Assembly: GCA_002713585.1 (NCBI GenBank) | Contig: PATD01000042.1 | Coordinates: 1 to 19,367, forward strand | Direction of reading: 5' to 3' | DNA length: 19,367 bases | DNA from: Methanobacteriota archaeon | GTDB lineage: Archaea > Thermoplasmatota > Poseidoniia > Poseidoniales > Thalassarchaeaceae | Part shown: one piece after another, positions 306-17,259 of the stretch | Numbering within the stretch: the first letter of the stretch is position 1 | How the letters are laid out: each line of letters starts with the position of its first letter | The notes under the pieces: model-generated | What the model was told of the DNA's origin: nothing | The model's database searches: none | The model's input: only the letters and a program-made list of their open reading frames with translations | Program-made: the position numbers and the translations under genes

Positions 306-1969
306 GAATCCAACCAACGAACTCTCTTGTACACATCTATCTGTCCTTCAGTGAAGTAGTAACTTTGCTCTAATTCATAACTTCCATTGAGGACAAATGT
401 TAGCTCATCATAATTCCACATGTCCTTTTTGTGACCTCGGATATGTATCACTGAATCAGATTCATCATCGATAATTGGCATCAGTTGTCCGATGCCTAAA
501 TCGCCCCAACTCCCATGGGTGTCGATTTCAACATCACTACCCATTCTGCCTAGATAGAGATCCCAAAATCGGGAATATGGTTGACTTACAATGAATACAT
601 CATCCTGGTTTTCAGGCGTATTTTCATCTAACCATTCACTCATCCCTCTGAAATCACATCTCCCCCCTTGTTCATAGTATTCGAAATCATTCACCAACCA
701 ATGCAAGCTGTTTGACGCGAATATTGCCGTGAATGCTAATGCAATCGCCCATGACCATGTTGTCGTACTATCGAGTTTACTTCTTTGAGAATTGAATGCA
801 GAATCCATTAGGTCTATGGTTTTAGAAATCGAACTCCCAAACAAAATGTACCATGCAGGCATTGAGAACACGAAGTATCTCGACACCCAAAGTGGCCGAA
901 CAAGAACAGAGTAGATTACGACCATCAACATACTCCCGCCTCCTACAAACCAAACAAACCATTCAATTTCATTCTCTAATTCACGTTCAGTTTTCATTTT
1001 TCGATGCAAGTACAATATCAACGGAGAAAGAAGCACGAAGTACCACAATGATTCTGCAATGTCAGTTATTGTTCCCCGGTCGTCAAATGCAACAAAATAA
1101 TCGAATAGAGAAACCACGGGTCTTCTCGGTGTATCATTAATCCACATACTATGGTTTGTGCTTGAGGAGTCAAGAAACATCTTCTCCAGCATGAAAATTG
1201 CAACAGATGCCAGAGAGAAGCATATCATCAATCTTTGACCGTGGTTAGAGTTTAGGTAATCACGGATTTTATCGCTTAATCCGATTGGTTCCTGTGTACC
1301 GTGATTGGAAATCGTGGTCTTGATACGGATTATGAAATCACAAATCAGGCCTAGGACGATAGCTAATCCTGCGAGATAGTGAATTAAGTATGCTAGCGTC
1401 AATAATGTGACACTGGTTGCAATCTGTGGTTTTGTCAACCTCTCAGGTTTCCGAATTAAGTAGAACGAGATCCAAATGAATAGTGTCGTGAACATGTAGG
1501 GTCGAAATTCTTGACTGTAGAGTATCGAGAGATATGATACACTCATCATTCCGGCTGCAATGATTCCTGCCTTTTCGTCAGTGTGCTTGCGTGTAAATTC
1601 GCTTACAATGTAAATCAGAATTACTCCGGCAATTGCACTCACAGAGCGGAGCGCATAATCGGATTCAGTACCTACTATTTGGGCCCACCAATATAGTAGC
1701 CAAGTGCCCATGCCTACCATCGAAAGCCATCCTTCCATTGTGTCTCTCCAGTCTCCTCCATCGACTGCATCGAGTGTCGTTAATTCATCAAGCCAGAACG
1801 ATTCTACACCAAGTCCCCGGAATCGTAACATAGCCGAAATAATCAGGATCATGAACAATGAGATTCGATATGCTGCGCTCGCGTCTCTCGGGATGATGCC
1901 CCCAATCTGATTTCTCCCCATACCGATTTCACCACATCTAATCTGCGCATTCTTAGTGTTCTTTGACAT
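302..1969 (-). CDS. Polytopic membrane glycosyltransferase, GT-C fold (family 39/83, PMT/ArnT-like)
   Basis: 555-aa ORF with many hydrophobic segments. The N-terminal region LRFRGLGVESFWLDELTT resembles the first-loop acidic motif region of PMT/ArnT-like enzymes. A soluble C-terminal domain follows. The call rests on motif recognition only. Confidence 0.55.
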   Translation of the reverse strand: MSKNTKNAQIRCGEIGMGRNQIGGIIPRDASAAYRISLFMILIISAMLRFRGLGVESFWLDELTTLDAVDGGDWRDTMEGWLSMVGMGTWLLYWWAQIVGTESDYALRSVSAIAGVILIYIVSEFTRKHTDEKAGIIAAGMMSVSYLSILYSQEFRPYMFTTLFIWISFYLIRKPERLTKPQIATSVTLLTLAYLIHYLAGLAIVLGLICDFIIRIKTTISNHGTQEPIGLSDKIRDYLNSNHGQRLMICFSLASVAIFMLEKMFLDSSSTNHSMWINDTPRRPVVSLFDYFVAFDDRGTITDIAESLWYFVLLSPLILYLHRKMKTERELENEIEWFVWFVGGGSMLMVVIYSVLVRPLWVSRYFVFSMPAWYILFGSSISKTIDLMDSAFNSQRSKLDSTTTWSWAIALAFTAIFASNSLHWLVNDFEYYEQGGRCDFRGMSEWLDENTPENQDDVFIVSQPYSRFWDLYLGRMGSDVEIDTHGSWGDLGIGQLMPIIDDESDSVIHIRGHKKDMWNYDELTFVLNGSYELEQSYYFTEGQIDVYKRVRWLDS

Positions 1970-2079: not shown

Positions 2080-3567
2080 ATGGAATGGATACAAATGAAA
2101 ACGCGAACAATGCAAGGAATGACACTAGTTTTACTGATGTTGATGGCAGCTTTTGCCGGATGCGTTGCAGATGACACATCTGATGACACATCTACTAGCA
2201 CAGCAGACACCAGCACAAGTACTGCTGATAGCACCAACAGCACCGCCGATAGCAGTTCATCTGATAGCAGCTCATCTGATAGCAGTTCATCAGATAGCAG
2301 TTCATCTGATAGCAGCTCATCTGATGGTAGTTCTTCAGATGGCAGCAGCAGCGATTCCTCTTCCAGTGGAGGTGCAGCAGTTAGCACAATGGATTCCGAA
2401 GATGGAGGCTACACATACGCTTCCAATGTGGATAACCATCGATCTCTGATGGCTGACATGTGCGACATCAAGACCTACGCCAGCAATGCCCAGTGGACTG
2501 CAGCAAAGGACGTCTACCAGAATGGTAAGAATGCACCTAAGAGCGACGGTTCCTACCGCACCCTTGCAGGATTCGCTGCAGCAGCTGGAAAGCAACACAA
2601 CTACGACATGTTCTACGGAATGAACGGTTCAGTCGATGCTCACATCATGGCCGCTCTAGACGGAACTGGCGACTTTGCGAACACTTCCGACACAGTCCGA
2701 TACCAGGGTGTTGCTAAGCTAACTGCTAACATGGCAATGGTCGCATACACCATCCACGAGTTGAACACTGCAGTCAACAAGGCTGAGGCTGGCAACTGGG
2801 AAAACAATGACTCTGGAGCACCTCACAACTGGGACGAAGGATGGGCATTCTTCCATGGTCCTGATGAGAACGTTGGCTGTGGGCCAGTATCGACTCTCAA
2901 CAAGAGAGCCAACGACTTCGGCACCAAGACCAATACATCATTTGGAGATGTAGCCAACACCACTCATGCTATCACAGACGCAATGGTCGGTGGACTTGCT
3001 GCTCTACAGACAAACGACAGCACTGGATACAATGATGCTGGCGGCGTCGTCGTCAAGAACGTGATCATTGCATACTCTCAGGCAGTCCTGAAGTACACAT
3101 ACAAGATGGACTCCACCACTGATGCTGCTAAGTATCAGGCTGAAGGATACGCATTCTGGAAGACCATCGAAGCTTACGCAGCTGACTACACCGATGCATG
3201 CTACAACAACAAGACCCACACAATGGCTTACGTTGGAGATGCAGCCGATGCTACTGTTTGTGATAACTTTGCATGGTATACCGACTTCTCTATGGGTGGC
3301 GGACCTGCATTCACTGGATGTTACAACGTTGTAAGTCACACTGTGGCTACTGGCGTGAATGAATCCCAGTGTAACGATGGGTTCGGCGCAGTTGGTTCTA
3401 CTGGCATGCCGATGTACTACAACAACTACGGCGCTAGCCAGATGAATGAAGTTCTAGACCTAACGGACGCTACCCAGCTTGGCACATCGTATGATGTGTC
3501 TGCCTGGCTCGCTCCAGTATGGGCTCATTACGGCATCACATCTGATGACATCGGGTCTTACTCCTGA
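2080..3567 (+). CDS. Secreted lipoprotein of unknown function: S/T/D-rich linker plus a ~390-aa globular domain (possibly iron-related)
   Basis: Signal peptide with lipobox (LMAAFAGC), then a ~75-aa low-complexity T/S/D linker including (SSSSD)n. The globular part carries paired motifs NWDEGWAFFHG and AEGYAFWKTIEAY and six further Cys. The ATG at 2095 (MKTRT...) is a plausible alternative start. Confidence 0.75.
   Translation: MEWIQMKTRTMQGMTLVLLMLMAAFAGCVADDTSDDTSTSTADTSTSTADSTNSTADSSSSDSSSSDSSSSDSSSSDSSSSDGSSSDGSSSDSSSSGGAAVSTMDSEDGGYTYASNVDNHRSLMADMCDIKTYASNAQWTAAKDVYQNGKNAPKSDGSYRTLAGFAAAAGKQHNYDMFYGMNGSVDAHIMAALDGTGDFANTSDTVRYQGVAKLTANMAMVAYTIHELNTAVNKAEAGNWENNDSGAPHNWDEGWAFFHGPDENVGCGPVSTLNKRANDFGTKTNTSFGDVANTTHAITDAMVGGLAALQTNDSTGYNDAGGVVVKNVIIAYSQAVLKYTYKMDSTTDAAKYQAEGYAFWKTIEAYAADYTDACYNNKTHTMAYVGDAADATVCDNFAWYTDFSMGGGPAFTGCYNVVSHTVATGVNESQCNDGFGAVGSTGMPMYYNNYGASQMNEVLDLTDATQLGTSYDVSAWLAPVWAHYGITSDDIGSYS
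2248..2367 (+). repeat. In-frame 15-bp tandem repeat encoding (DSSSS)n
   Basis: gatagcagYtcatcW occurs 5 times nearly perfectly (2248-2322), followed by three degenerate units (gatggtagttcttca, gatggcagcagcagc, gattcctcttccagt). Confidence 0.9.
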
Positions 3568-3706
3568 TGATATGGAGTGAATTACAATCGCGAACACGCA
3601 CCGTACGCGGTCTACCGGCTGATCCGTTTGAGAGGCGAACCAACTCTCAATGTCCTCGGACGGGGACGGTGGACCGCGCACTGGTCTGGTGATTAGAGAA
3701 TAAGGA

Positions 3707-5812
3707 ATGATTGAGATGATAGCGAATAAAAAAAGAGCAATTTCCCTGGCAATTCTGATGGTTGTTGGGATGTCTGCCGGATGCCTTTCTGATGACACCG
3801 TTTCGTCTACAGATGACGGTTTGGCTGAGAATCCCGTGGATAGTTTGGTTATTGCATTTGAAGTGAAGGATACTTACACTAACATCGATGACAACCCCCA
3901 ACGTTTAGCTGACTATCTCGCTGAGAAGCTGGATGCTCCCGTAACTTTGTACCCGGTTGATTCCGAAGGTGCAGCCATGGAGGCTTTGCGCTTTGGTAAT
4001 GCGGATATCGGTTTCATGGATGGTGGGGCCGCATGGATTGGCTGGCAACAGTATGATCTTGGTGTGCTTGCTTCTGAGACCAAACCTGATGGGCGAACAT
4101 GGTATGGGGCTCGTGCAGTTGTAATGGCTGATTCAGATATTGCCGCTGCTGATCTTGATAATGATTCAGTCACCGATCCATTTGCTCTTTTCCAGGGTAA
4201 GACCCCGTGTCATACTGGTTGGTTGAAGTCAGCTGGAATGTTGCTTCCCATGGGCTACCTCATTGGAAATGGATATGCAAATGTAATCGGAGATCCGAAT
4301 GATGTTGATTCAATGAGAAATACAATTTTCAATTATTTCAATGAAAACGCTTCAATCCCTGAGTCAGGAGAATTGTACTATAGTTACAAGGGTGCACTTC
4401 GTTGTCTTTCCGAAGATCGTGGCGATATTGCATTTGTTGCAGATTCAACACTTGACTACTATTGTGTTGATCGTAAAGAGAGCAACTCTTGGTGCCTAGA
4501 TGAGGATTTGTATCACGAATTGCCTTTGTTTGGAAAGGCTCCTGGACACCCAGTCATGTATAATCCAGCATTGATGAGCACTGAGAAGGCAGATGCCATA
4601 CGTGATGCATTGGTTGAGATGGATGATGATGATGTAGGCGATGATATCCTAGACGACATCGTGAATTCACCACGTGGTATTGTGGATGTAGGTGGCACTG
4701 AAGCTCACCTTGGCACATATTCGGCAGCGATTCGGAATATTCCCGGAATCCAGGCATACTTCGGCGGTAACTATGGCGTTGTATCAAACTCAACACCTAC
4801 TAAGGATACAATCAGAATTGCATACGAGGTCAAGGATACCTACACAAATGTGGATTCTAACCCTCAGATTCTAGCAGATCGCCTTTCTGATAGATTGGGC
4901 GTTAATGTGGAACTTTACGATGTTAGTTCTGAAGGTGCTATTCTCGAGGCTCTTAGATTCGGTAATGCAGATATTGGATTCATGGATGGAGGAGCTGCAT
5001 GGGTAGGTTGGAAGGAATACGGTCTAGCTGCGTTAGCTGCTGATTTGAAGCCTGATGGCCGTTCATATTACGGTGCACAAGCGTATGTTCGAGCAGATAG
5101 TGACATAGCAGCAGCATATCTTGATGATGATCCATCTACTGATCCTTACGAACTATTCAGAGGAAAGACACCTTGCCACACTGGCTGGCTGAAATCAGCA
5201 GGTATGCTTCTACCGATGGGCTACTTGATTGGTAACGGATATGCCGAAGTTGTCGGCGACCCAGATGACGTCTCTTCTCTCAGAGATACCATCTATAATT
5301 TCTTCAACGAAAATGCATCTATTCCCGAATCTGGTGATTTGTATTACAGTTACGAAGGTGCGCTACGTTGCATGTCATCAGGTCGAGGAGATATCGCATT
5401 TATCGCTGACTCAACTTACGAATTCTATTGTGTTGATCGAAACCGAAATTGGTGCCTAGAGGATGGCGAATATTTGGCCCTCCCTATCTTTGGTAAGGCG
5501 CCGAGCCACCCTGTAATGTATAATCCTGAATTGCTTGATATGGCCACAAGGGCAGCACTGCTTGAAGAGCTGATGGCGATGAATTATGAATCTTGGATTG
5601 AGGAGGGAGATGGTTATTGTTACAACACTAATTCGCGTTCTATTGACGCTAATCTTACTCAGAGTTCCTGTGGTAGTTCGATACTTTCTGAGGTGTTGAA
5701 TACTGGAGGTTTGATTGCAGTGAATACTCAAGAGCACATGGGGAGTTATTCTGATTCAATTTCTTATGTTCCAGGTATTTCTTCATATTTCGAAGATAGA
5801 TACGATATCTGA
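3707..5812 (+). CDS. Bilobal transferrin-family / PhnD-superfamily substrate-binding lipoprotein (putative Fe3+ binding)
   Basis: Signal peptide plus lipobox (GMSAGC). Two tandem ~320-aa copies each carry transferrin-lobe motifs: NADIGFMDGG, (W/Y)YGA(R/Q)A, GKTPCHTGWLKSAG, YYSY(K/E)GALRC, GDIAF(V/I)ADST and AP(G/S)HPVMYNP. The TAAGGA just upstream suggests the ATG at 3716 may be the true start. Confidence 0.85.
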   Translation: MIEMIANKKRAISLAILMVVGMSAGCLSDDTVSSTDDGLAENPVDSLVIAFEVKDTYTNIDDNPQRLADYLAEKLDAPVTLYPVDSEGAAMEALRFGNADIGFMDGGAAWIGWQQYDLGVLASETKPDGRTWYGARAVVMADSDIAAADLDNDSVTDPFALFQGKTPCHTGWLKSAGMLLPMGYLIGNGYANVIGDPNDVDSMRNTIFNYFNENASIPESGELYYSYKGALRCLSEDRGDIAFVADSTLDYYCVDRKESNSWCLDEDLYHELPLFGKAPGHPVMYNPALMSTEKADAIRDALVEMDDDDVGDDILDDIVNSPRGIVDVGGTEAHLGTYSAAIRNIPGIQAYFGGNYGVVSNSTPTKDTIRIAYEVKDTYTNVDSNPQILADRLSDRLGVNVELYDVSSEGAILEALRFGNADIGFMDGGAAWVGWKEYGLAALAADLKPDGRSYYGAQAYVRADSDIAAAYLDDDPSTDPYELFRGKTPCHTGWLKSAGMLLPMGYLIGNGYAEVVGDPDDVSSLRDTIYNFFNENASIPESGDLYYSYEGALRCMSSGRGDIAFIADSTYEFYCVDRNRNWCLEDGEYLALPIFGKAPSHPVMYNPELLDMATRAALLEELMAMNYESWIEEGDGYCYNTNSRSIDANLTQSSCGSSILSEVLNTGGLIAVNTQEHMGSYSDSISYVPGISSYFEDRYDI
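3839..5797 (+). repeat. Internal tandem duplication of a whole binding-protein lobe (aa ~45-352 and ~367-697)
   Basis: The two halves align colinearly and are roughly two-thirds identical by eye. Long identical runs include KTPCHTGWLKSAGMLLPMGYLIGNGYA and FNENASIPESG. Confidence 0.85.
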
Positions 5813-5838
5813 AATCAGGATGGGGGGTCAGACCAAAT

Positions 5839-8199
5839 ATGGTCAGCACTAGAGTTGTAGTCTTCTGTATCTTCGTCCTGGTATGTTCATCCATTAACGT
5901 CCATTCTGAATCAAATACATCGGAGAGTTACACTGTATCTGGCTACGTCCTGCTCCCTGATGGATCTCCTGCGAATGCAACTTCAGTCAAACTTGTTCCA
6001 ATGGATTCCGTTTGGACGGATCAAACAGGTTTCTATTCCATTTCCGGTGTATCTAATGGTGAGCACATAATTCGTGCTTATTTCATGAATGACGGGCACA
6101 CAGTCGCTTATCGTTCGGTAGTTGTAGACGATGATGTTGAATTAAATTGGACCGTAGGTAAGAATTGGGTCATTCCAAGATTGAGTGATAATTTAACAGT
6201 CAATGACTACAACATCACATCAGTCTCGATAAATGAGAACGGTGATATTACTGATTTAGGTGAGAGTGTTGCGTACCTGGGTCCATATGCTATTGGAGAT
6301 TATTACACATTGATAGGCACATTTGATGATGCTGAGGGAACAACTCAGCAGTTCCATTTCCAAGTATCTGAAGGTTCTACCACGTATCCTCGTCCGAATG
6401 AATTCATTTTCCAATACGGCATGAATAACCTGTATGGTTTTCTTACAGATTCAACAGGTGCACCGATGAATGAGGTGCTGGTTAGTATCGAGAATCAGAC
6501 AGTATCCACAAATACTGATGGATTCTATCTTCTTCGTAATCTTGTGATTGGAGATACATACAATGTAAGTTTCAAGCAAGGTAATGTTGAGGTGTTCCAA
6601 ACGGTGAGCCAACAAATCTATTCCGGACCTGGATGGTTAAATGTGTCATCAATAGTGGATGTTGAATTACCCGAATCACCGTATTTCCACCTCTCACTAG
6701 ATACTTCTTCCAATGAATCGTATGAAATTAGGTGGGATGGAGGGAACTTTACAGAATATTTCTCTGTGTATGAAGGTGAAATTTCTGATGATAACACCCC
6801 CATTTACACAGGTACGCAAAGATCGATTGACTGGGTTCCCAGCGAATCTGGAACATTTGTGTTCAACATTATTGCAGTGAATTCGAATGGATCCACAGAA
6901 TCTCCTCAATCCTTCGTTCTAATTGTACTTCCTGATTCTCAATCAGACGATTTGTGGTCAGAAGGTATGAGTTGGGATTATGCCTTGACACATACACCTT
7001 TGAGCTCTTACGGAGTTCACAACAGAACAGTTACTGCGATATCAACTGAAACAGTTCAGGATGCATTTGGCAATACCAGAGAATCTTACTTGGTGAGGGT
7101 TACAGATGGCATTGATGAGGAAGGCGAACAGAGATATCGTTGGGTTGACAAGGATAACTTGCTGAATATCAAGACATATTGGGCAGACGCCCCTAGTTCA
7201 TCGTCCTACTATCAAGAAGGCACACTAGGTTGGGAATTTGTGGATTCCGAAGGTGCAGAGGCATCTTTACTATCTGGGCCAGAGCCCACTGAACTTCATT
7301 TCAATCGAACCAATATCATTGGTGTTCCAGGTCATCCAAATGGTTACGATGATACCATGAATAATGTGTCTATATCCTATGACGTAGAGGTATCAACACC
7401 TGCTGGTTCGTTCATGACCACTTACATCTCGATAACAGATGCGTCTGATGGAATTAGGTCATGGGAATTGTGGTACAACCATACTGTCAGGAATTGGGTG
7501 AAAATCATCGACAGGCTCCCTGGCTCACATTCCGACTCAGTCGAATATGTGTTGACTGCATTCGAGGTGCCTTTGTCTCCCCAATTCTTAGTCGAGGACT
7601 CATCTATTGATACGAAAAATTTCACAATCCGTTGGTCTGATTTCCAAGGGGCTGAATCGTACGAATTGAGCCATAATGGGGTTGTGACTTATGCGGGTTC
7701 TTCCAATTTTTATGAGGCGATGGATCTGGAGGATGGCGAGCATCATTTTGAGATTGTCGCGGTTATGAATTCCGACTATTCAGTTATTGGAAATAGTCTG
7801 AACCTTTCAGTTCTATTCGTTCAACAGCCACCGATTCTTGAAATCGAGAATCAGAATCTAACTATTGGTTCATCCAAGTTAGTTACTTGGTCAGAAATTC
7901 ATGATGCTCAAGCCTATGTTCTAGGAGTAGTGCTTCCGGATGGATCGTATTATGAGGCTTACAATGGGAGTGCAAATAGCTTTGATTTGGAGATTGAAAA
8001 TATTGGGCAACACAGGATTCGAGTTTTGGTGTTAATGGAAGATGGCCCAAATTCTGGATGGTCTGAATCTGTATTCATACTAGCTGAGGATAGTAATTTA
8101 GTAGCAGAGGGTACCAGCGCTTCTTTTTCTTCAGTGGTTTTTGGATTCGTTCTTTTACTAATTCTGCTGATAGCAATTTCAAAACCAAGGAGGGCTTGA
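5839..8199 (+). CDS. Large secreted, C-terminally membrane-anchored surface glycoprotein (CarboxypepD_reg-like and fn3/Ig-like beta-sandwich repeats)
   Basis: N-terminal signal peptide. Two segments look like carboxypeptidase-regulatory folds (YTVSGYVLLPDGSPANATSVKL...GFYSISGV and LYGFLTDSTGAPMNEVLVSI...DGFYLLRNL). At least three segments of the type (Y/F)xIRW...YxV/L look fn3-like. I count 19 N-X-S/T sequons. The C-terminus has a hydrophobic helix plus a KPRRA tail. Confidence 0.7.
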   Translation: MVSTRVVVFCIFVLVCSSINVHSESNTSESYTVSGYVLLPDGSPANATSVKLVPMDSVWTDQTGFYSISGVSNGEHIIRAYFMNDGHTVAYRSVVVDDDVELNWTVGKNWVIPRLSDNLTVNDYNITSVSINENGDITDLGESVAYLGPYAIGDYYTLIGTFDDAEGTTQQFHFQVSEGSTTYPRPNEFIFQYGMNNLYGFLTDSTGAPMNEVLVSIENQTVSTNTDGFYLLRNLVIGDTYNVSFKQGNVEVFQTVSQQIYSGPGWLNVSSIVDVELPESPYFHLSLDTSSNESYEIRWDGGNFTEYFSVYEGEISDDNTPIYTGTQRSIDWVPSESGTFVFNIIAVNSNGSTESPQSFVLIVLPDSQSDDLWSEGMSWDYALTHTPLSSYGVHNRTVTAISTETVQDAFGNTRESYLVRVTDGIDEEGEQRYRWVDKDNLLNIKTYWADAPSSSSYYQEGTLGWEFVDSEGAEASLLSGPEPTELHFNRTNIIGVPGHPNGYDDTMNNVSISYDVEVSTPAGSFMTTYISITDASDGIRSWELWYNHTVRNWVKIIDRLPGSHSDSVEYVLTAFEVPLSPQFLVEDSSIDTKNFTIRWSDFQGAESYELSHNGVVTYAGSSNFYEAMDLEDGEHHFEIVAVMNSDYSVIGNSLNLSVLFVQQPPILEIENQNLTIGSSKLVTWSEIHDAQAYVLGVVLPDGSYYEAYNGSANSFDLEIENIGQHRIRVLVLMEDGPNSGWSESVFILAEDSNLVAEGTSASFSSVVFGFVLLLILLIAISKPRRA

Positions 8200-8204
8200 T
8201 TTAG

Positions 8205-9305
8205 ATGGATAAGGGAAAACTTGCCTTAATCCAAGTATCCATTCTCTTGATTGGTTTCTTTGGATGGTACATTCTATCTGATCAAGACATACAAGAATCA
8301 GAGCAGCCTTACTCGATTACTGTAACTGATTCAAATGGAGTGGTACACCAGTTCGAAGAATCTCCTTCGCGTGTTGCTATTTCCAATACCTATATTGCGA
8401 GTGCAATGAGAATGTTGAATGTCTCTTCGTCCGTAGTTGTAGGAGTTTCTGGTGACTTCGATGATTCGATATTATGGCCTGAATATAATGAGACAAAGAT
8501 AGTTCAGAATTCGGCCCATTCTGAGATTGATTTTGAGGCATTGTACGATGCTCGACCCGATGTATACATCGTTTTCGCTACCAATGGTATGGTCGATACT
8601 AGTGCCATACGAAACAAACTTGATGAGGTAGGTATCAGGGTTATTGCATTGGATTTTTACAAATATGATTACCTCCGAACCGAGTTTCAGGTAATTGCTG
8701 AATTGTTCAATAAGCAAGAAGAAATGAATGATCTTTTAGCAGATTTTGATTCGATAGAATTACTAATTGAAGGAAGGATTTCTTCTCTTGAATCCGACAA
8801 CCGTCCAACTGTTGTTATGGAACATCATGCTTCCCTTACTCGTGATCCAGTAGTTTTGACCGGAACATCTCAATGGACTGATATGATAGAAAAAGCAGGA
8901 GGGATAAATTTCTTTGCTGAACTTCCGGGACATACCACTCATGTTGACATGGAGGCAATCCTTGATGCGGATCCTGATGTAATCCTATTTGACGGAATAA
9001 CATTTGATATTGGATTCAATCGATTTGATACAGACGGAATTTCTTGTGATCAACATATAGAATTCGTGTCCGAACGTCCTGGTTTTGATGGAGTTCAAGC
9101 TGTAATAGATGATAGAATGCTAATTTTTTCTGGTGAATTTGCAGGTCCTATGATGATTCATGGTCTTCCAACACTTGCCAAGCACTTACATCCTGAAAAA
9201 TTCCTTGACATTGATACAGATTCGTATCTAGACGAATATTTCTCCGAATATCATGGTGTTGAGAGAATAGGAAAGTTCGTTTGCCAATCAGGTAATGGAG
9301 ATTAA
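8205..9305 (+). CDS. ABC substrate-binding protein, FecB/BtuF/HmuT class (iron-siderophore / heme / cobalamin type), N-terminal TM anchor
   Basis: N-terminal hydrophobic anchor, then the family-typical ITVTDSNGVVHQFEESPSRVAISNTYIASAMRMLN opening and the PDVYIVF and DPDVILF motifs. An AGGAGG sequence lies upstream. The gene overlaps the permease gene by 11 nt. Confidence 0.8.
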   Translation: MDKGKLALIQVSILLIGFFGWYILSDQDIQESEQPYSITVTDSNGVVHQFEESPSRVAISNTYIASAMRMLNVSSSVVVGVSGDFDDSILWPEYNETKIVQNSAHSEIDFEALYDARPDVYIVFATNGMVDTSAIRNKLDEVGIRVIALDFYKYDYLRTEFQVIAELFNKQEEMNDLLADFDSIELLIEGRISSLESDNRPTVVMEHHASLTRDPVVLTGTSQWTDMIEKAGGINFFAELPGHTTHVDMEAILDADPDVILFDGITFDIGFNRFDTDGISCDQHIEFVSERPGFDGVQAVIDDRMLIFSGEFAGPMMIHGLPTLAKHLHPEKFLDIDTDSYLDEYFSEYHGVERIGKFVCQSGNGD

Positions 9306-10404
9306 TCCAATGGAGTCGATCACTGAACGTCATATCCAGAATGGATATGTACAGATTCTCATAATGGCAGTAGTTGCAAGTTGTACCATAATACTGGGTC
9401 TATTTGCAATGGGTATCGGTTCTTCTGAACAGTTAGATCAACTATCGACACTGAAAATAATTCTAGGTATTTCAGAGCCTGACTCATTACAGTCCGATAT
9501 AATCTGGCATCTCAGATTTCCTAGAATACTAATGGCAATTACATGTGGAGTTGCTCTTGCCACTGCTGGAGCACTTATGCAGGGATGTTTGGGAAACCCC
9601 CTGGTTTCCCCACTTACTCTTGGAGTTGCATCCGGTGCATCACTAGGTGCCGCCCTTGCAATTGTATTGGGTTTGCAAGTAATCGATTTCCTTGAACCTT
9701 TTTTGTCAAACCTCCCCGGTCCGCTTTCAAATTTGGATTTTGAATCGATAGGAATCGTGGCCAATGCATTTTTCTTTTCGTTAATTGTGGTTGTAATTAT
9801 CATACAATTGGGGAAAATGCGTTCTATATCTCCTGAATCATATATTCTTGTAGGCATTGCAATCACATTCATCTGTGGAGCAATAGTATCAACAATTCAG
9901 TATTTTGCATCTGATGCTGAGATTTCTCAACTGACGCATTGGTCCTTTGGTTCACTGTCAAGGCCAGATCTTGGTCAGACAATGTGGATTGCTGCACTGA
10001 TTATTTGTCTAATGCCCTATGCAATCATATTTGCTTGGGATTTGAATTCGATGGCTTTAGGGGGTGACGATTTTGCAATTTCAACAGGTGTAGACCCACA
10101 AGCTACAAGGGTTACAATATTGGTATTGTCAGCTGGCATGACATCTATTGTCATAGCATTCACTGGTTTGATTGGTTTTGTCGGTCTTGCTGCACCTCAC
10201 ATGACTCGTCTAATTATAGGAAATGATTATCGTAAATTGTTACCATGTTCCGCGGTTTCTGGGGCATTTTTGGTATTAATAGCAGACACTATTGGTCGTA
10301 CTATTGTTGCCCCAATCATCATTCCAGTCGGAGTGATGTTATCCGTAATTGGGGGGCCATTTTTCATGTATCTCCTCCTTGCAAATAAGGGGGTGTCACA
10401 TTGA
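9295..10404 (+). CDS. ABC permease, FecCD/BtuC/HmuU family
   Basis: Polytopic protein with the hallmark RFPRILMAITCGVALATAGALMQGCLGNPLVSPLTLGVASGASLG. Its stop overlaps the next gene's TTG start. Confidence 0.9.
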   Translation: MEINPMESITERHIQNGYVQILIMAVVASCTIILGLFAMGIGSSEQLDQLSTLKIILGISEPDSLQSDIIWHLRFPRILMAITCGVALATAGALMQGCLGNPLVSPLTLGVASGASLGAALAIVLGLQVIDFLEPFLSNLPGPLSNLDFESIGIVANAFFFSLIVVVIIIQLGKMRSISPESYILVGIAITFICGAIVSTIQYFASDAEISQLTHWSFGSLSRPDLGQTMWIAALIICLMPYAIIFAWDLNSMALGGDDFAISTGVDPQATRVTILVLSAGMTSIVIAFTGLIGFVGLAAPHMTRLIIGNDYRKLLPCSAVSGAFLVLIADTIGRTIVAPIIIPVGVMLSVIGGPFFMYLLLANKGVSH

Positions 10405-11207
10405 ATTCGATACTCGAGGCCAAGAATCTGAGTTTCAGTTGGGGCAATAAACAAGTTTTTTCTGGCGTTGGTTTTGATATTCAGCCAAACCAGATAGTTG
10501 CTATTGTCGGGGTTAATGGGGCAGGTAAATCTACACTATTGAAATGCCTAAATCGTATACTTGTTCCTTCTACAGGTAGTATATCCATCAATTCTGAAGA
10601 AGTTAGTACAATGCCTATTCTTGAATTAGCGAAACAAGTATCCTATGTTCCACAGTCAGTATCTACAAGTTTCCCATTAGATGTATATGACGTTGTTATG
10701 CTTGGAAGGAGGCCATACATTTCTTGGAGAATTAGTGATGAAGACCGGGAGTTTGTTTCTAACACTATTTCTTTATTCGATTTAGAAGATTTTGCTTTCA
10801 GAAGATTTGATCAGTTATCTGGAGGAGAGAGGCAACGTGTGATTATTGCTAAGGCGGTTGCCCAAAACCCTTCATTATTTCTTTTCGATGAACCTACCAG
10901 TGATCTTGATCTTAAGAATCAGATTATTGTGATGAAATCAATTCGTAAACTCGTGGACAATAAGGACAACAATTGTTCGGCTTTGATTGCGATTCACGAT
11001 CTAAATACTGCTGCAAGGTTTGCAGATTCTATTTTGATGTTACATGAGGGTGAAATGAAGGCGTTTGGCTCCCCAGAGATAGTTTTCACTGAAGAAAATA
11101 TTTCAGAAGTTTTTGGTGTGACCAGTGACTTGATATCATCGAATGATGGTGCACCAATGAGGATACATGTTCTCGATATCCCCAATGACGAGTCGGCGGG
11201 AAATTGA
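10401..11207 (+). CDS. ABC ATPase, FepC/HmuV/BtuD type
   Basis: Walker A GVNGAGKST, signature LSGGERQRV and Walker B LFLFDEPTSDLD. The TTG start overlaps the permease stop (tTGA). Confidence 0.9.
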   Translation: MNSILEAKNLSFSWGNKQVFSGVGFDIQPNQIVAIVGVNGAGKSTLLKCLNRILVPSTGSISINSEEVSTMPILELAKQVSYVPQSVSTSFPLDVYDVVMLGRRPYISWRISDEDREFVSNTISLFDLEDFAFRRFDQLSGGERQRVIIAKAVAQNPSLFLFDEPTSDLDLKNQIIVMKSIRKLVDNKDNNCSALIAIHDLNTAARFADSILMLHEGEMKAFGSPEIVFTEENISEVFGVTSDLISSNDGAPMRIHVLDIPNDESAGN

Positions 11208-11226
11208 AACTTAAAGTGGTGAAAAA

Positions 11227-11679
11227 ATGACTGAAAAAGAACTAATGATTATTTTTGGAACAGAGACTGGAAATGCAGAAATGGTTGCTGAAGATGCTCA
11301 ACGAATGGCGCCAGATTATGGTTTGAATGCTACTATCCATGACATGGATGATTTGAGTGTGGATGATCTTTCCGGAGCCACACGTCTCCTAGTAACTTGC
11401 AGCACCTGGGGCGATGGTGATCAGCCAATGAATGCTGAAGATTTGTATGAATCTATGGAGGATGCAGATGGTGGAACTATGGATGGCATAAATTTTGCAG
11501 TCCTAGCATTAGGGGATACCGCCTACGAACTGTTCTGTGAATCAGGAAAGCAATGGGATGCAGTTCTTGAGGAAAAGGGCGGGAACCGAGTTGCGGAAAG
11601 AATTGACCTTGACACAGATTTTGAAGATTTCACAGAAGAGTGGCTTCAGTCTGCATTGGAAGCATTCCAGAATGTGTGA
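11227..11679 (+). CDS. Flavodoxin (short FMN-binding, MioC/CysJ-FMN-domain-like)
   Basis: IFGTETGNAEMVAED, LVTCSTWGDGDQP and FAVLALGDTAYELFCESGK are classic flavodoxin FMN-loop motifs. A GGTGA sequence lies upstream. Confidence 0.85.
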   Translation: MTEKELMIIFGTETGNAEMVAEDAQRMAPDYGLNATIHDMDDLSVDDLSGATRLLVTCSTWGDGDQPMNAEDLYESMEDADGGTMDGINFAVLALGDTAYELFCESGKQWDAVLEEKGGNRVAERIDLDTDFEDFTEEWLQSALEAFQNV

Positions 11680-11705
11680 TAGTCCTCATTTCTAAGGTGA
11701 ATTGA

Positions 11706-12527
11706 ATGACTGAAAAATCAGCTGACATACCTCGTCATGCTCCACCTAAGGGCGCGAGTACAAGACAACAGGAGTTGTTGTATGATCCAAATGTGGCTAC
11801 CTCATCACACGCTGAACAAGCTAGGACTCTTATTGAGAGGGTAGGTACTGCAACATTATGCACGATTTCACACAGCCATGAGGGTCATCCTTACGGTTCA
11901 TTTGTTACATTCGCAATGGATGGCGAGCATCCTATCTTTTTGATAAGTCGACTAGCAGAACACACAAAGAATCTGCTTCAGAATTCTAAATCCTCACTTT
12001 TGGTTGCAGAAGGAGGGGATGGCAATCCACTTGCTTTGGGCCGAGTGACATTAGTTGGAATTTGTGAACAAGTTTCGGACGATGAACGGCCCCGCTTGAA
12101 GGAAATCTTTGTTCAACGACACCCTGATTCAAAATTCTATGCTGATTTCGGCGATTTCCTATTTTTCCGTCTTGAGGTAGATTCTGTGCGATATATCGGA
12201 GGTTTTGGTCGTATGTCGTGGTTCGGAGATGTGGATTGGGCTGAGGCTGAACCAGATCCGTTGTATTCATCTGCTGATGGGATAATCGAACACATGAATG
12301 ATGATCATCAGGATGCTATGCTATTGATTTGCCATACTATGTCGAAGGCAACTGATGCTACAGAACCTGTGATGACGGGAGTGGACCGGTATGGGTTTGA
12401 GATGTCGGTTATGACAGGGGATGGAAGGCGTCCGATTCGAGTTGCGTTTGAGAATACATGCGATAATCCAGATGATGTTAGAAGTGCCATGGTCAATTTG
12501 GTAAAAATCGCTCGTTCAAAGGTATGA
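11706..12527 (+). CDS. HugZ/HutZ-like heme-utilisation protein (PNPOx-like split barrel + C-terminal DUF2470)
   Basis: The N-terminal ~170 aa match the pyridoxamine-5'-phosphate-oxidase-like pattern (GTATLCTIS...GHPYGSFVTFAMD...PIFLISRLAEHTKNL...SSLLV...LGRVTLVG...DFLFFRLEVDSVRYIGGFGRMSWF). The C-terminal IIEHMNDDHQDAMLLICH is the DUF2470 signature. An AAGGTGA sequence lies upstream. Confidence 0.75.
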   Translation: MTEKSADIPRHAPPKGASTRQQELLYDPNVATSSHAEQARTLIERVGTATLCTISHSHEGHPYGSFVTFAMDGEHPIFLISRLAEHTKNLLQNSKSSLLVAEGGDGNPLALGRVTLVGICEQVSDDERPRLKEIFVQRHPDSKFYADFGDFLFFRLEVDSVRYIGGFGRMSWFGDVDWAEAEPDPLYSSADGIIEHMNDDHQDAMLLICHTMSKATDATEPVMTGVDRYGFEMSVMTGDGRRPIRVAFENTCDNPDDVRSAMVNLVKIARSKV

Positions 12528-12625
12528 CTGGTCGATGGTGATGACTAAATCAGTTGTCCGTTTCGTAGGGTTTAGGCTAGTTCTACAAATACTCTAGTTA
12601 GGCATGATTTCAGGTTCGTGAGTTT

Positions 12626-13345
12626 ATGTCTAAATCAGTGGTACATATCGAGAATGCTTCGATAGGTTTCTCACCAGATGAACCCCTCATCAAAAATCTC
12701 AATCTGGAAATCAATCAGGGCGAGATTGTCGCCATTGCTGGCCCATCAGGTATTGGGAAGACAACACTTCTCCGTACGATTGCAGGTCTCGTTCCAATGC
12801 TTGAAGGAGAAATGACTCTCTTTGGTCGAAATAGCAAAGCATCTCGTGGTGAACTTGGATACATACCACAAAGGCTTGGCCTCATCCGGCACGCATCTGT
12901 CTATCACAATGTGTTAATGGGCGCCTTGACAAGTACAGCTGGCGTATGGTTCCCGTTTTCATTTGAGGCCAGACGTCGTACATTAGAATCGATTGATGCA
13001 ATGGGTATTAGTGAGAAAAAAAGAACTCCAATTCGACTTTTATCTGGAGGTCAACAGAGACGCGTTGCAACCGCAAGAACACTAGCCCAACAACCGTCAA
13101 TCATTCTTGCTGATGAATTCCTTGGAGAATTAGATGAAGAAACAATGGAAAGCGTCCTATCAAAGGTCACCAATTATGTTCGTACAAATAATGCGACGTT
13201 AATCGTAGTGGAACACGATATATCGCGTGCTAAGAGGATGGCGGACCACCTTCTTATTCTTGATGATGGCCAATTAAATCCATTTGTCGATCAACCAATT
13301 TCTATGCAGATTTCCATGCGTTTAGATAAGGAGTTGAACGTATGA
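12626..13345 (+). CDS. phnC: ABC ATPase, PhnC-like
   Basis: Walker A GPSGIGKTT, signature LSGGQQRRVATAR and Walker B IILADEF. A PhnC-style insert follows the Q-loop (LGYIPQRLGLIRHASVYHNVLMGAL...). The gene is translationally coupled (ATGA) to a PhnE-type permease. Confidence 0.75.
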   Translation: MSKSVVHIENASIGFSPDEPLIKNLNLEINQGEIVAIAGPSGIGKTTLLRTIAGLVPMLEGEMTLFGRNSKASRGELGYIPQRLGLIRHASVYHNVLMGALTSTAGVWFPFSFEARRRTLESIDAMGISEKKRTPIRLLSGGQQRRVATARTLAQQPSIILADEFLGELDEETMESVLSKVTNYVRTNNATLIVVEHDISRAKRMADHLLILDDGQLNPFVDQPISMQISMRLDKELNV

Positions 13346-14277
13346 GCGACTCTGGTTCTAAAGTTGATTTTACTACCCTCGCCTCTAGATTGTGGTACTC
13401 ATCTCGTTGGTTTCTTCTGTTTATCGGCTTGTTAGTTGTAGCTTTTCGAGTAACTAACAGCATGGATCCCAACTGGGGGCGATTAGCTAATACGAATAAC
13501 AATCTGGTTACCTTCTTCCAAGAATCTCTGTGGCCTCCTGACTGGAGTGTTATTGAAGCACAAGCATACCCTCCTTGTTTGGCGGCTCCAGGCCTATCTT
13601 TCACCTGCTCAACAGCATGGTTGGGTATGATTGAGACTCTCAAAATTGCATTCGTTGCAACTATTCTAGGTATGACGATATCGTTCCCATTGTCATTGCT
13701 CGCTTCCCGTAATCTTAGCCCTAATTGGGTTAGTTACCCTGCTCGTTTCTTACTCGCAGGGTCTCGAAGTTTGCCAAGTATCATTTGGGCTCTTTTCTTC
13801 GTTATCGTGATAGGTTTCGGGCCATTATCCGGAATATTAGCTATGACTGTCTATACGATTGGGTATCTCGGTAAACTACAGTACGAAACCATCGAGGGTA
13901 TCGATCGTGGACCCTTGGAAGCATCCAAGGCGATGGGCCATGGATGGTTTGAGCGTTCTTTTGGTGTAATTCTCCCTGAATCCGCAAATGGCCTAATCTC
14001 GCAGGTGATTTTCATGTTTGAATATAATTTCAGACATGGGACTGTGATTGGAATTGTGGGTGCAGGTGGGATCGGATATTACATCAATCTCTATCTCAAA
14101 TTCCTACAATATGACAAGGTAATCGCCTACCTGATCATTATCTTCGTTGTAGTATTAATTCTAGATGTGATATCCATTTATGCCCGGTCTTTGTTTACCG
14201 AGGATGGCGATGTACGACGTCAATCTTGGTGGTCAATTTTACTCCCTCCCTCTATGTTGAGGAATGAAGATGACTGA
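13342..14277 (+). CDS. phnE: ABC permease, PhnE-like
   Basis: Matches the PhnE pattern: IETLKIAFVATILGMTISFPLSLLASRNL, RSLPSIIWALFFVIVIGFGPLSGILAMTVYTIGYLGKL, EASKAMG, FEYNFRHGTVIGIVGAGGIGY. Confidence 0.8.
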   Translation: MSDSGSKVDFTTLASRLWYSSRWFLLFIGLLVVAFRVTNSMDPNWGRLANTNNNLVTFFQESLWPPDWSVIEAQAYPPCLAAPGLSFTCSTAWLGMIETLKIAFVATILGMTISFPLSLLASRNLSPNWVSYPARFLLAGSRSLPSIIWALFFVIVIGFGPLSGILAMTVYTIGYLGKLQYETIEGIDRGPLEASKAMGHGWFERSFGVILPESANGLISQVIFMFEYNFRHGTVIGIVGAGGIGYYINLYLKFLQYDKVIAYLIIIFVVVLILDVISIYARSLFTEDGDVRRQSWWSILLPPSMLRNEDD

Positions 14278-14329: not shown

Positions 14330-14521
14330 TCACTCAATCTTTCGGACGTTGATTGCGTTTGGTCCCTTAGGGCCCTCGCCGACATCGAATTCTACTGAGT
14401 CACCGTCTCTGATGGTTCCCTCGACTTGACTCTTGTGGACGAATAGATCGTCCCCTTCTTCTTGTTCGATGAAACCGAACCCCTTTGTCTGATTGAACCA
14501 CTTTACTGTTCCTTGTGCCAT
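14330..14521 (-). CDS. Cold-shock domain protein (CspA family)
   Basis: [33 protein letters not shown] contains the RNP1 (KGFGFI) and RNP2 (VFVH-like) motifs. I prefer the ATG at 14521, which is preceded by AAGGAA, over the ORF-track start at 14542. Confidence 0.9.
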
Positions 14522-14634
14522 AGTTCCTTGGCGCATCGACATAATACTTGAACAGGACTGGAGGAATTACACGTTTACCCCCGAAAGTAATCAATTCTCA
14601 AAGATGCGGAGTTTTTACTTCCAAGCCGAGAATT

Positions 14635-14874
14635 CTAATTTTCTTCAGGGTCTTCTGCTTTGATTCGTATGCCACCGTCCTTGTAGTGGACATAGATGTG
14701 GTGTGGTATTTTCTCAGTAAGAGCAGCTAGCGCCTCATACACTTCATCTTCATCAACTTTGAATGCCTTGGCAGCCTTCTTAGTTGACCATGGATTGTTG
14801 ACGAAGTCGTTGTCCTCCAAGCAAATCCACTTGAACATCCGCTTCTCGAACTTGGTCAAGTCCGCCATCGCCAT
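14635..14874 (-). CDS. Small hypothetical protein (79 aa), immediately downstream of gpsA
   Basis: Clean ORF 38 bp downstream of the gpsA stop on the same strand. I recognise no motif. The antisense ORF 14696..14887 is shorter and low-complexity. Confidence 0.5.
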   Translation of the reverse strand: MAMADLTKFEKRMFKWICLEDNDFVNNPWSTKKAAKAFKVDEDEVYEALAALTEKIPHHIYVHYKDGGIRIKAEDPEEN

Positions 14875-14912
14875 GTATGCGGGATGACGGTATCATGCAT
14901 GAACATCGCGGC

Positions 14913-15914
14913 TTAATTTCCGGTTTCGATCATACGGTCGATTGCTTCGTCAACTTCGATTCCTCCATCGAGAAGATCACACAATGCATGGAGGAATGGA
15001 GTTGAAATTCCGAGTACTGCGGCTCTTGAGAGGAACATTCGGGCTGCTCGGACCCCTTCCGCAACCATATGCATCTTCCCAAGGGCTTCTTCAAGGCTGA
15101 GTCCTGAACCAATCATCTCACCTAGGGTGCGATTGCGGCTACTTGGGCTTGTGGAGGTGACATAGAGGTCGCCGATACCTGCTGCCGAACTCGAGGTCTC
15201 AGGTTTCGCACCTAGTGCCGGAAGAAGGCGCTGCCCTTCTTGAAAACCAGCGGTTACTAGTGCCGCTTTGAGGTTGTCACCTGATGAATTTCCTAGTCCG
15301 TCTACTATTCCACAAGCAAGTGCTATCGGATTTTTGAACGCGCCCCAAAGTTCGGCACCGAGTGGGTCATCTGCGGGATGTAACTTGAGAGTCTTTGTTG
15401 TAAGGCGGTCCGCCATTCTACGGGCCATTGTTCTATCATGAGCGGCGATTAGAGCGATGGTACTTACTCCGCGGGCTACCTCTGGAGCAATTGTCGGTCC
15501 AGTCATCACAAAGATGGGGTTGGCACACTTCGCTGCTGCGAGTTTTTTCTCCATCACTGCACTGATGAAAGGCTCCTCCTCTGTTTCCGGAGCTAGCCCC
15601 TTCGCTAGATCGAGTATGGCGTGAGAGGGTCTTAGATGCGGGATTACATCGTCGAGGACACTCAGAACCACTCCTGATGGGAGCGAGAGTACGAGGATTT
15701 CTGATGCATCACAAATTGTGGCTAAATCCATCGTGGCCTCTACATTTTCAAGGACTTCCCCAGGAAGGTATTTTTCGTTAATCCCAGTCGATGTAATCGA
15801 GGCATATACCTCCTCTTCTATGGTCCAACCCATTACTGAATGTCCAGTGCCACCCCACACCTTAGCGAGTGCAGTGCCCCAGTTCCCCAGACCAACGATG
15901 CCTATGCGCGCCAT
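14913..15914 (-). CDS. gpsA: NAD(P)H-dependent sn-glycerol-3-phosphate dehydrogenase
   Basis: N-terminal Rossmann motif IGIVGLGNWGTALA. Also LAKGL, GPTIAPEVA, NPIALACGIVDGLG, GIGDLYVTSTSPSSRNRTLG and VAEGV, all typical GpsA blocks. Confidence 0.9.
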   Translation of the reverse strand: MARIGIVGLGNWGTALAKVWGGTGHSVMGWTIEEEVYASITSTGINEKYLPGEVLENVEATMDLATICDASEILVLSLPSGVVLSVLDDVIPHLRPSHAILDLAKGLAPETEEEPFISAVMEKKLAAAKCANPIFVMTGPTIAPEVARGVSTIALIAAHDRTMARRMADRLTTKTLKLHPADDPLGAELWGAFKNPIALACGIVDGLGNSSGDNLKAALVTAGFQEGQRLLPALGAKPETSSSAAGIGDLYVTSTSPSSRNRTLGEMIGSGLSLEEALGKMHMVAEGVRAARMFLSRAAVLGISTPFLHALCDLLDGGIEVDEAIDRMIETGN

Positions 15915-16015
15915 CGAGCAGGTCCGGTTTCAGGGGGTCTTGACCGTTGGGGATGGAGCCGGGGTCAAAGGACCAATTCCGGCAGGACTGTAAGGGCACG
16001 GTGAGGAACCGTATC

Positions 16016-17206: not shown

Positions 17207-17259
17207 GGAAATTTTTGATGCGTTGCATTGAAGCATATGAGCCCCGCCTCACGGGTTAA

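Follow-up and report, generated by a model that had tools for sequence, protein, structure and literature searches.

What does a tightly packed array of ten genes do for an uncultured marine archaeon, and do its members belong together? The array lies on contig PATD01000042.1 (assembly GCA_002713585.1), from a Thalassarchaeaceae member of the order Poseidoniales (Marine Group II, uncultured and among the most abundant planktonic archaea); the whole stretch analysed here, 19,367 nucleotides, is referred to as the window. An earlier note on this DNA had read the genes as a composite iron array forming one putative regulon, and this reading is supported by two operator boxes at the first gene, by the conservation of such a box on each module, by its match to a published motif and by the recurrence of the gene families in at least five orders. 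The array is likely a metal-regulated, most likely iron-regulated, composite uptake island. We also consider it likely that it is an iron-acquisition island of three modules, probably controlled by a DtxR-family repressor: module A, a FEA1-related lipoprotein (g1); module B, a transferrin-like lipoprotein with its putative translocator (g2, g9 and g10); and module C, a surface glycoprotein with an ABC (ATP-binding cassette) importer (g3 to g6), while g7 and g8 would encode a cytoplasmic pair. In the open reading frame (ORF) list of the window the ten genes stand on the plus strand at 2080–14277; their coordinates and the gaps between them (139, 26, 5, −11, −4, 19, 26, 98 and −4 bp from g1 to g10) were recomputed and agree with the tight run of ten consecutive co-directional genes described before.

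g1, 2080–3567, plus strand: FEA1-related (phytotransferrin-family) lipoprotein, matching NF038033 and PF07692
g2, 3707–5812, plus strand: bilobal transferrin-family substrate-binding lipoprotein with a lipobox-like SAGC26, matching PF00405 and PF12974
g3, 5839–8199, plus strand: surface glycoprotein of 786 amino acids (aa) with a C-terminal transmembrane anchor and CarboxypepD_reg domains
g4, 8205–9305, plus strand: Peripla_BP_2 binding protein with an N-terminal membrane anchor (PF01497, 91.9 bits)
g5, 9295–10404, plus strand: FecCD-family permease (PF01032, 273.3 bits)
g6, 10401–11207, plus strand: ABC ATPase of the haem/corrinoid/Fe-chelate class (PF00005, 107.7 bits)
g7, 11227–11679, plus strand: short-chain flavodoxin of 150 aa, like the flavin mononucleotide (FMN) domain of CysJ and like MioC (PF00258, 108 bits)
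g8, 11706–12527, plus strand: split-barrel (CREG_beta-barrel) and DUF2470 haem-binding protein of the MSMEG_6519/HOZ type, assigned from structure-sequence matches
g9, 12626–13345, plus strand: PhnC-like ABC ATPase, putative partner of g2 (TIGR02315)
g10, 13342–14277, plus strand: PhnE-family permease, putative partner of g2 (TIGR01097)

The identity of g2 is central to the question. The protein scores 96.7 bits against PF00405 (Transferrin, cut-off 20.3) in four stretches, and its lobes are 58% identical to each other. Each lobe has its own ligand set (D105, Y133, T170, K174, Y227 and H281; D427, Y455, T492, K496, Y549 and H601), and the segments FMDGG, WYGA, CHTGWLKSAG, YSYKGALRCL and APGHPVM align with the Asp, Tyr, Thr/Arg, Tyr and His motifs of lactoferrin. 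The best 60 of 94 solved relatives found by sequence are all transferrins (expect value E = 1.6e-24 for lactoferrin); with a single lobe as the query, the best 60 are again all transferrins, with no PhnD or PtxB among those 60. Across 29 homologues, some as little as 61% identical, each ligand position is invariant or conserved in at least 90% of them. When an AlphaFold2 model of g2 was compared with the PDB using Foldseek, the best 50 matches were all transferrins with both lobes aligned (E 7e-25 to 4e-20). Some observations weigh against this assignment. The model is of moderate confidence only, with a predicted local distance difference test (pLDDT) of 70 and a predicted template modelling score (pTM) of 0.52. 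At the anion site, which in transferrins consists of a Thr and an Arg where helix 5 begins, the Thr is kept (T170, T492) while the vertebrate Arg is replaced by Lys (K174, K496), a residue common at this position in ichthyosporean, amphioxus and echinoderm lobes. Moreover, several ligands, chiefly in the C-lobe, are lost in P0241, P0242, P0244, P0248 and P0250, orthologues or paralogues 34–45% identical to g2. On its sequence and predicted fold, we regard g2 as a real bilobal transferrin homologue.

The relatives of g2 are few. When 1.84 billion representative proteins were searched exhaustively with the g2 N-lobe by phmmer, only 310 matched, and g2 homologues bear the names of Poseidoniaceae, Thalassarchaeaceae or Euryarchaeota metagenome-assembled genomes (MAGs). 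Unnamed environmental proteins aside, the nearest non-archaeal matches of the N-lobe are multi-lobe transferrin-like proteins of Ichthyosporea (Chromosphaera, Amoebidium, Creolimax, Ichthyophonus, Abeoforma and Sphaeroforma), of the green alga Bryopsis, of amphioxus and of a crinoid. Ichthyosporean transferrins match the g2 lobe at E = 7e-100, and the ligand columns of g2 coincide with those of ichthyosporean and animal lobes. In a rough neighbour-joining tree of 69 lobes the eukaryotic and archaeal-type lobes separate in 97 of 100 bootstraps; in this rough tree the archaeal-type lobes are therefore the sister group of the eukaryotic lobes, not nested within them and not a recent import. A recent eukaryote-to-archaea transfer of transferrin was considered and rejected, since the archaeal lobes are not nested and the gene context is conserved across both families of the order. 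Compared with eukaryotic transferrins, the archaeal lobes are 58–62% identical to each other, which points to a lobe duplication separate from the eukaryotic one. Single-lobe transferrins with a full ligand set also occur in the order, and an extra minus-strand single-lobe transferrin gene with a box of its own is found in loci L054–L058; ligand loss and extra single-lobe copies together suggest subfunctionalisation or a change of ligand. Among the eukaryotic matches, P0245 (Chromosphaera, 1894 aa), P0257 (Bryopsis, 2619 aa) and P0280 (Branchiostoma, 2661 aa) have from at least four to about seven lobes per chain, and most of the lobes inspected keep the full ligand set.

The gene upstream of g2 encodes a second candidate iron-binding protein. 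g1 had been left as an unknown lipoprotein and can now be named as FEA1-related, with 339.4 bits against NF038033 (cut-off 250) and 88.2 bits against PF07692 (Fea1, cut-off 25). Its N terminus (...LMAAFAGC) contains a lipobox-like AFAGC, followed by a Ser/Asp-rich linker, and the protein carries nine N-glycosylation sequons; a sequence search of solved structures gave no relative of g1. Of the three proteins described earlier as exported or anchored, the transferrin-like lipoprotein is real, while the first lipoprotein is no longer 'unknown' and the 'giant' glycoprotein has 786 aa. Low iron induces ISIP2a, the diatom phytotransferrin, and FEA1 of Chlamydomonas, which gather Fe(III) at the algal cell surface or take it up there; g1 belongs to their family, above the cut-off of the NCBI model, a likeness at family level and not residue by residue. 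In contrast to the algal proteins, g1 is a prokaryotic lipoprotein encoded beside a transferrin and ABC importers. Transferrin and phytotransferrin families hence stand side by side in one archaeon, under one iron box.

The putative operators were first spotted by eye in the gap sequence, and the two boxes were then confirmed by pattern search. The elements are as follows.

Distal iron box, 2006–2019, unstranded: TTAGGCTCACCTAA, extended to TTTAGG-N4-CCTAAA, an exact match to TTAGGNNNNCCTAA
Proximal iron box, 2060–2073, unstranded: TTAGGCGAGCCTAA, matching TTAGGNNNNCCTAA exactly and lying 7–20 bp ahead of the ATG at 2080
Half-sites, 12571–12603, unstranded: TTTAGGC (12571–12577) and TTAGGC (12598–12603) in the 98-bp gap before g9, from sequence reading

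At up to one mismatch TTAGGNNNNCCTAA occurs at two sites only in the window, both in the 110-bp gap upstream of g1, against 0.34 expected. An inverted-repeat tool, whose seed of 6 bases or more misses arms of 5 nt, reported nothing in the three gaps within the array and upstream of it. The two boxes flank an AT-rich, TATA-like stretch (about 2027–2042), and the ATG follows the end of the proximal box by 7 bp, so that a bound repressor would block initiation. In order to follow the box beyond the window, 84 sequences of related loci (1.27 Mb) were searched: they contain 154 exact boxes, with 1.4 expected from base composition. Across loci a flanking T and A extend the box to a 16-bp palindrome, and the spacings of box pairs cluster at helical steps (33–35, 43–46 and 54–56 bp), the window pair being 54 bp apart start to start. 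A scan of one genome per species gave 79 homologous GTDB loci, essentially all from Poseidoniales, onto which the window proteins were mapped for synteny. In these, 130 of the 145 exact boxes fall in the 400 bp preceding a homologue of Fea1, the transferrin, g3 or PhnC, and 65 of the 72 loci with upstream sequence have a box within that distance upstream of a module gene. Boxes also precede the modules separately: g3 in L081 (39 bp), and Fea1, a single-lobe transferrin and PhnC in L082 and L084. L017 has a one-mismatch box 89 bp upstream of its flavodoxin gene, and in about 22 loci the PhnC homologue is preceded by intact boxes at 34–78 bp, or at 157 bp in L072. The window's own gap before g9 has no box match at up to two mismatches, and the half-sites in it fit a decayed remnant of a former internal operator. 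Because the only intact boxes are now upstream of g1, the ten genes would probably be de-repressed together at low iron, presumably as one transcript.

The same pattern is known from other metal regulons. It is the 14-bp one-dimer consensus proposed for IdeR/DtxR (PMC8464063), and it is nearly identical to TTTAGGC-NNN-CCTAAA, the chromatin immunoprecipitation sequencing motif of TroR, a member of the DtxR family which represses iron-uptake genes in Haloferax volcanii and whose tandem copies lie about 30 bp apart (PMC10783522). The TroR regulon and the IdeR/DtxR regulons of Actinobacteria thus share with the window both the motif, TTAGG-N4-CCTAA, and tandem copies tens of bp apart at iron-uptake promoters. 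They differ from it in that the 19-bp two-dimer form of IdeR is not used in the Poseidoniales boxes and that transferrin and FEA1 are not known members of those regulons; for Poseidoniales a DtxR-family regulator is predicted.

What module C would carry is best approached through its importer, g4 to g6. That the array holds a complete FecB/FecCD/FepC-class importer, as proposed before, is supported by all three components scoring over their family cut-offs (PF01497, PF01032 and PF00005). Weighing against a precise substrate, the block reaches no substrate-specific cut-off: g4 stays under every equivalog cut-off, g5 falls below the BtuC, FhuB and FecD models with BtuC as the best of them, and the best model for g6, NF010068 (haem ABC ATPase), gives 221 bits against a cut-off of 261, closely followed by the corrinoid model at 218. 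With the permease nearest to BtuC and a corrinoid ATPase as second-best for g6, the block might import cobalamin, another corrinoid or a tetrapyrrole and owe its place here to operon shuffling only. We consider this unlikely, since the stand-alone block of L081 has an exact iron box 39 bp upstream, a HOZ-type gene follows the block in every arrangement except L082 and L083 (where it sits in the transferrin operon convergent with the block), two lineages have ferrochelatase next to it, and the solved proteins closest to g4 are iron/siderophore binding proteins (9hrj, 6b2x) and not BtuF. Haem is therefore favoured as the substrate of module C, with a ferric chelate or a corrinoid as alternatives; that the inserted block moves haem in particular we judge slightly more likely than not. 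The ferrochelatase genes adjoin the importer block in L081 (8846–9880) and L084 (7386–8402), two separate lineages; in L084 the gap between ferrochelatase and the divergently transcribed Fea1 bears a box. In two arrangements the island is accompanied by a gene of the GSDH family (soluble glucose/sorbosone dehydrogenase-like; L082, 15333–16520; L084, 2790–3989).

The block is led by g3, whose gene is always directly upstream of the Peripla_BP_2 gene. The glycoprotein has 19 N-X-S/T sequons and 310 homologues, themselves of about 780 aa, the few source-named ones coming from euryarchaeotal MAGs. Its model (pLDDT 75.7) is all-beta, with a string of beta-sandwiches around a strongly conserved central beta domain (about aa 373–576). 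A sequence search of solved structures gave no match, and the fold search gave only generic immunoglobulin/fibronectin type III strings, uninformative on function; a role in capture, as a receptor or as a scaffold at the cell surface is conjecture.

Two cytoplasmic proteins are encoded next. g8 had been read as a HugZ-like heme-degrading candidate; it proves to be of the MSMEG_6519/HOZ type and not HugZ proper, with 69.4 bits against the HugZ equivalog TIGR04109 (cut-off 240) and a reversed domain order, the DUF2470-like part being C-terminal in g8 and N-terminal in HugZ. Its solved relatives, which bind haem, are MSMEG_6519 (5bnc, 1.3e-43), AtHOZ1/AT3G03890 of Arabidopsis (6m09, 1.5e-33) and PtHOZ1 (9bl1, 3e-30). 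The likeness to bacterial haem loci (HmuTUV/HutBCD with HutZ/HugZ) consists in a Peripla_BP_2/FecCD/ATPase importer followed by a split-barrel haem-binding protein; the differences are the reversed domain order of the latter, the lack of an outer-membrane receptor, the surface glycoprotein of about 780 aa at the head of the block and the embedded flavodoxin. For g7, membership of the flavodoxin family (PF00258) stands as claimed, while the iron-stress long-chain type does not: g7 scores 120 bits against TIGR01931 (CysJ FMN-domain region) and 39.5 bits, far below the cut-off of 146.75, against the long-chain FldA/IsiB model TIGR01752. FMN domains of the CysJ/P450-reductase type pass electrons to haem oxygenases, and for this reason a role as electron donor for iron release is, by analogy, at least as likely as iron sparing through ferredoxin substitution. 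The flavodoxin gene is next to the HOZ-type gene in the window, L003, L016, L082 and L084, and it stands in or next to a transferrin operon with no HOZ gene in L017, L050, L051, L078 and L080.

The PhnC/PhnE pair had been listed in the earlier note as an item of its own; the gene orders argue instead for a membrane translocator of the transferrin-like g2. Among the 64 loci with enough downstream sequence, the transferrin gene, a PhnC-like gene and a PhnE gene are adjacent in 60, usually with a minus-strand gpsA beyond the trio, and the four exceptions are L002, L003 and L016, which are window-like, and L017 (transferrin-flavodoxin-PhnC-PhnE). Because of this adjacency we take g2 as the predicted binding protein of the PhnC/PhnE transporter, and, judged from these orders, the trio is the ancestral core across Poseidoniales. 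Like the eukaryotic transferrins (serum transferrin, lactoferrin, melanotransferrin and the ichthyosporean multi-lobe proteins), g2 has the Pfam family, two lobes, Asp/Tyr/Tyr/His ligands and the anion-site Thr. Unlike them, it is predicted to be lipid-anchored on the archaeal cell and is encoded in an operon with an ABC translocator; delivery would therefore proceed by docking to the permease and not by receptor-mediated endocytosis.

The same genes could also be taken for a PhnCDE-type importer of phosphonate, phosphite or phosphate that merely lies beside iron genes, its box belonging to another nutrient regulator. g2 scores higher on PF12974 (Phosphonate-bd, 137.9 bits) than on PF00405, and g10 passes the PhnE equivalog cut-off (TIGR01097, 236.7 bits against 216.7), both of which speak against a transferrin transporter. 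In addition, the Joint Genome Institute (JGI) names g2 homologues 'ABC-type phosphate/phosphonate transport system substrate-binding protein', and phosphonate transport is listed as a core Marine Group II trait (Tully 2019, PMC6336850). The likeness to PhnCDE thus consists in the PhnE score, a PhnC-like ATPase and the PF12974 match. In contrast, g9 reaches 155.3 bits against TIGR02315 (PhnC), under its cut-off of 266.1, and g2 misses both the PhnD equivalog TIGR03431 (51.9 bits, cut-off 261.1) and the subfamily model TIGR01098 (87.2 bits, cut-off 112). With so few matches to the lobe, the exhaustive search does not reach ordinary bacterial PhnD, while it finds ichthyosporean transferrins at E = 7e-100, and the solved relatives of a single lobe are transferrins as described above. 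Both lobes keep all four iron ligands together with the Thr of the anion site, a DtxR/TroR-type metal box lies in the promoter, and Fea1, flavodoxin and haem genes repeatedly join the transferrin operon, an iron/haem context around a transferrin-type ligand site. No gene for phosphonate catabolism (carbon-phosphorus lyase or phosphonatase) is present among the Pfam-annotated neighbours in L046, L081, L082, L084 and L085, a survey of neighbours and not genome-wide. A phosphonate importer is in our view distinctly unlikely, and we think it probable that the transferrin/PhnCE module moves Fe(III).

Tri- and tetravalent ions of many kinds bind to transferrins, and the DtxR family has many MntR-like members. 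The regulon might accordingly answer manganese or another metal, with the transferrin-like protein carrying a metal other than iron. Metal specificity is not readable from the box alone, and the search for a regulator leaves iron control less secure: tblastn with DtxR, MntR, Fur and the L086 regulator as queries found no regulator gene in the 1.27 Mb, and none in the window or within 10 kb of the Poseidoniales loci, nor is there a transcription factor in L046 among the divergent ABC-2 transporter and the ORFs upstream of g2. On L086, a Thermoplasmatota contig of 69% GC, a DtxR-family gene (2170–2598) lies 1.4 kb from a transferrin/PhnC/PhnE operon (3936–6640) with a single-lobe transferrin and a one-mismatch box 27 bp upstream. 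Its product is short (142 aa) and MntR-like, and JGI names Thermoplasmatota homologues of this family 'Mn-dependent', a DtxR-family regulator being able to sense Mn. Yet the co-localised functions are iron-specific (FEA1, the HOZ-type haem protein, ferrochelatase, the Fe-chelate-class importer and flavodoxin), Asp/Tyr/Tyr/His plus an anion site make up the place where transferrins bind Fe(III), and the archaeal motif that is nearly identical to the box is that of a repressor responding to iron (PMC10783522). A metal other than iron is on these grounds very improbable.

Iron control of the island is further qualified by boxes outside its modules and by the distribution of the modules. Exact boxes occur in promoters of sugar-nucleotide/glycosyltransferase clusters (NTP_transferase, DegT, WbqC), at 4197 and 6094 in L007, 4209 in L008, 4207 in L010, 4218 in L011, 4282 in L014, 4429 in L015, 18021 in L085 and 3080 in L064. 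In L064 the box at 3080 is followed about 56 bp further on by a one-mismatch copy (near 3136), and the pair immediately precedes a WbqC-like gene, in the same layout as at g1. Moreover, within 10 kb most genomes have module B only, module C being found in 8 and Fea1 in 16 of the 79 loci.

A glycosylation gene is also found at the promoter of the array itself.

g0, 302–1969, minus strand: PMT_2-family membrane glycosyltransferase, divergent from g1, with a PF13231 match

g0 and g1 share the box-bearing intergenic region, the distal box lying 37 bp upstream of the g0 start codon, and the divergent PMT_2/Fea1 layout recurs in L002, L003, L064 and L085. g0, outside the coordinates of the array as first drawn, is a probable eleventh member, and it may glycosylate the exported iron proteins under shared control.

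Synteny across related genomes supports the gene set and narrows the gene order. The ten families co-localise in at least five orders across Poseidoniales, the window's included, while the exact ten-gene order is restricted to a small clade, namely the window, L003 and L016 (L002 and L064 being truncated). In L059 the order is Fea1-g3-g4-g5-g6-HOZ-transferrin-PhnC. In L085, together with L007, a left block of Fea1-g3-g4-g5-g6-HOZ is split from the trio by an 8-kb glycosylation cluster. L082 and L083 have Fea1-g3-g4-g5-g6 convergent with an operon of single-lobe transferrin-flavodoxin-HOZ-PhnC-PhnE, and in L084 a single-lobe transferrin is divergent from PhnC-PhnE, with a nearby ferrochelatase divergent from Fea1-g3-g4-g5-g6-flavodoxin-HOZ. 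L081 has the importer block alone, after ferrochelatase. By this comparison the window order is an L082-type operon into which the four-gene block g3 to g6 has been inserted, separating the transferrin gene from the flavodoxin gene. Chance proximity of the ten genes in a variable region, without common function or regulation, is barely credible: glycosylation genes interrupt the region in some lineages, base composition shifts within the array and its exact order is confined to the small clade, but the ten families cluster in at least four other orders in distant lineages with the same operator on each module.

GC content at third codon positions is 0.29–0.37 over g2 to g9 and 0.43–0.59 in the right flank (14330–19161), and in the close relative L017 protein identity climbs across the region from 63% (g2) to 98% (gpsA). 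The drop in third-position GC and the identity gradient point to recombination or transfer inside the island (window 5839–13345 against the right flank). A Tara Oceans contig carries an identical copy of the window's left part. The gap between g1 and g2 (3568–3706, 139 nt) is rich in GC and free of T-runs, and folding predicts a long hairpin for it (−50 kcal/mol, z = −2.2); the hairpin was set aside as a feature, z being only −2.2 and the gap in relatives being shorter, about 55 bp. The remaining features of the window lie to the right of the array.

Cold-shock-domain gene and 79-aa ORF with no family match, 14330–14542 and 14635–14874, minus strand: both between PhnE and gpsA
tRNA-Leu gene, 17260–17344, plus strand
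Secreted protein, 17494–19161, plus strand: a collagen-like G-X-Y run, then about nine repeats of about 45 aa ending ...GTRLYFEA...ELWAHETTN.STWQVADI

The tRNA is the sole match of an Rfam scan of the window, and the long antisense ORFs over 17494–19161 (17256–17918 and 18178–19143, both minus strand) are probably repeat artefacts.

Altogether, we propose that the iron-acquisition island works as three modules under a probable DtxR-family metal repressor acting through the TTAGG-N4-CCTAA boxes. In module A the surface FEA1-related lipoprotein would concentrate or capture Fe(III). In module B the lipid-anchored transferrin would bind Fe(III), with carbonate or some other synergistic anion probably taking part, and hand it to the PhnC/PhnE-type ABC translocator. 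Module C, the surface glycoprotein with the FecB/CD/E-type importer, would probably take up haem or another iron chelate, from which the flavodoxin and the HOZ/MSMEG_6519-type protein may free iron in the cytoplasm. The ferric importers FbpABC, FutABC and HitABC follow the same proposed logic, in which a binding protein feeds an ABC translocator under an iron repressor. FbpA, the 'bacterial transferrin', is extracytoplasmic and has a Tyr-rich Fe(III) site with a synergistic anion. It is single-lobed and of another binding-protein family, whereas g2 is a two-lobed PF00405 transferrin with membrane parts of the PhnC/PhnE family.

The earlier note knew of no description of this combination around a prokaryotic transferrin homologue as a unit. 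Our literature search gave no account of a transferrin or phytotransferrin in Marine Group II/Poseidoniales or of an archaeal FEA1 lipoprotein (the phylogeny of McQuaid et al. 2018 being outside the comparison), no paper calling these Marine Group II proteins transferrins or tying them to iron, and no account of Marine Group II iron acquisition. Tentatively, and with less than even confidence, we suggest that the core 'phosphonate transporter' of Marine Group II may be an Fe(III) uptake system that is based on a transferrin, probably depends on carbonate and has a phytotransferrin-family lipoprotein as its partner, that the two together may be the main high-affinity iron route of these archaea, and that the archaeal proteins may represent a prokaryotic sister lineage to the transferrins of animals and of their unicellular relatives, showing the ancestral, ABC-docking mode of transferrin. 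If so, the core trait 'phosphonate transport' (PMC6336850) would be reassigned to iron, and an archaeal Fe(III) pathway, which, like the diatom one, may depend on carbonate chemistry, would enter models of the iron cycle as well as metatranscriptome marker sets. The conserved box would let the iron regulon of these archaea be predicted from genomes alone, and transferrin evolution would gain a prokaryotic sister group that has forms of one and of two lobes and is linked directly to ABC transport.

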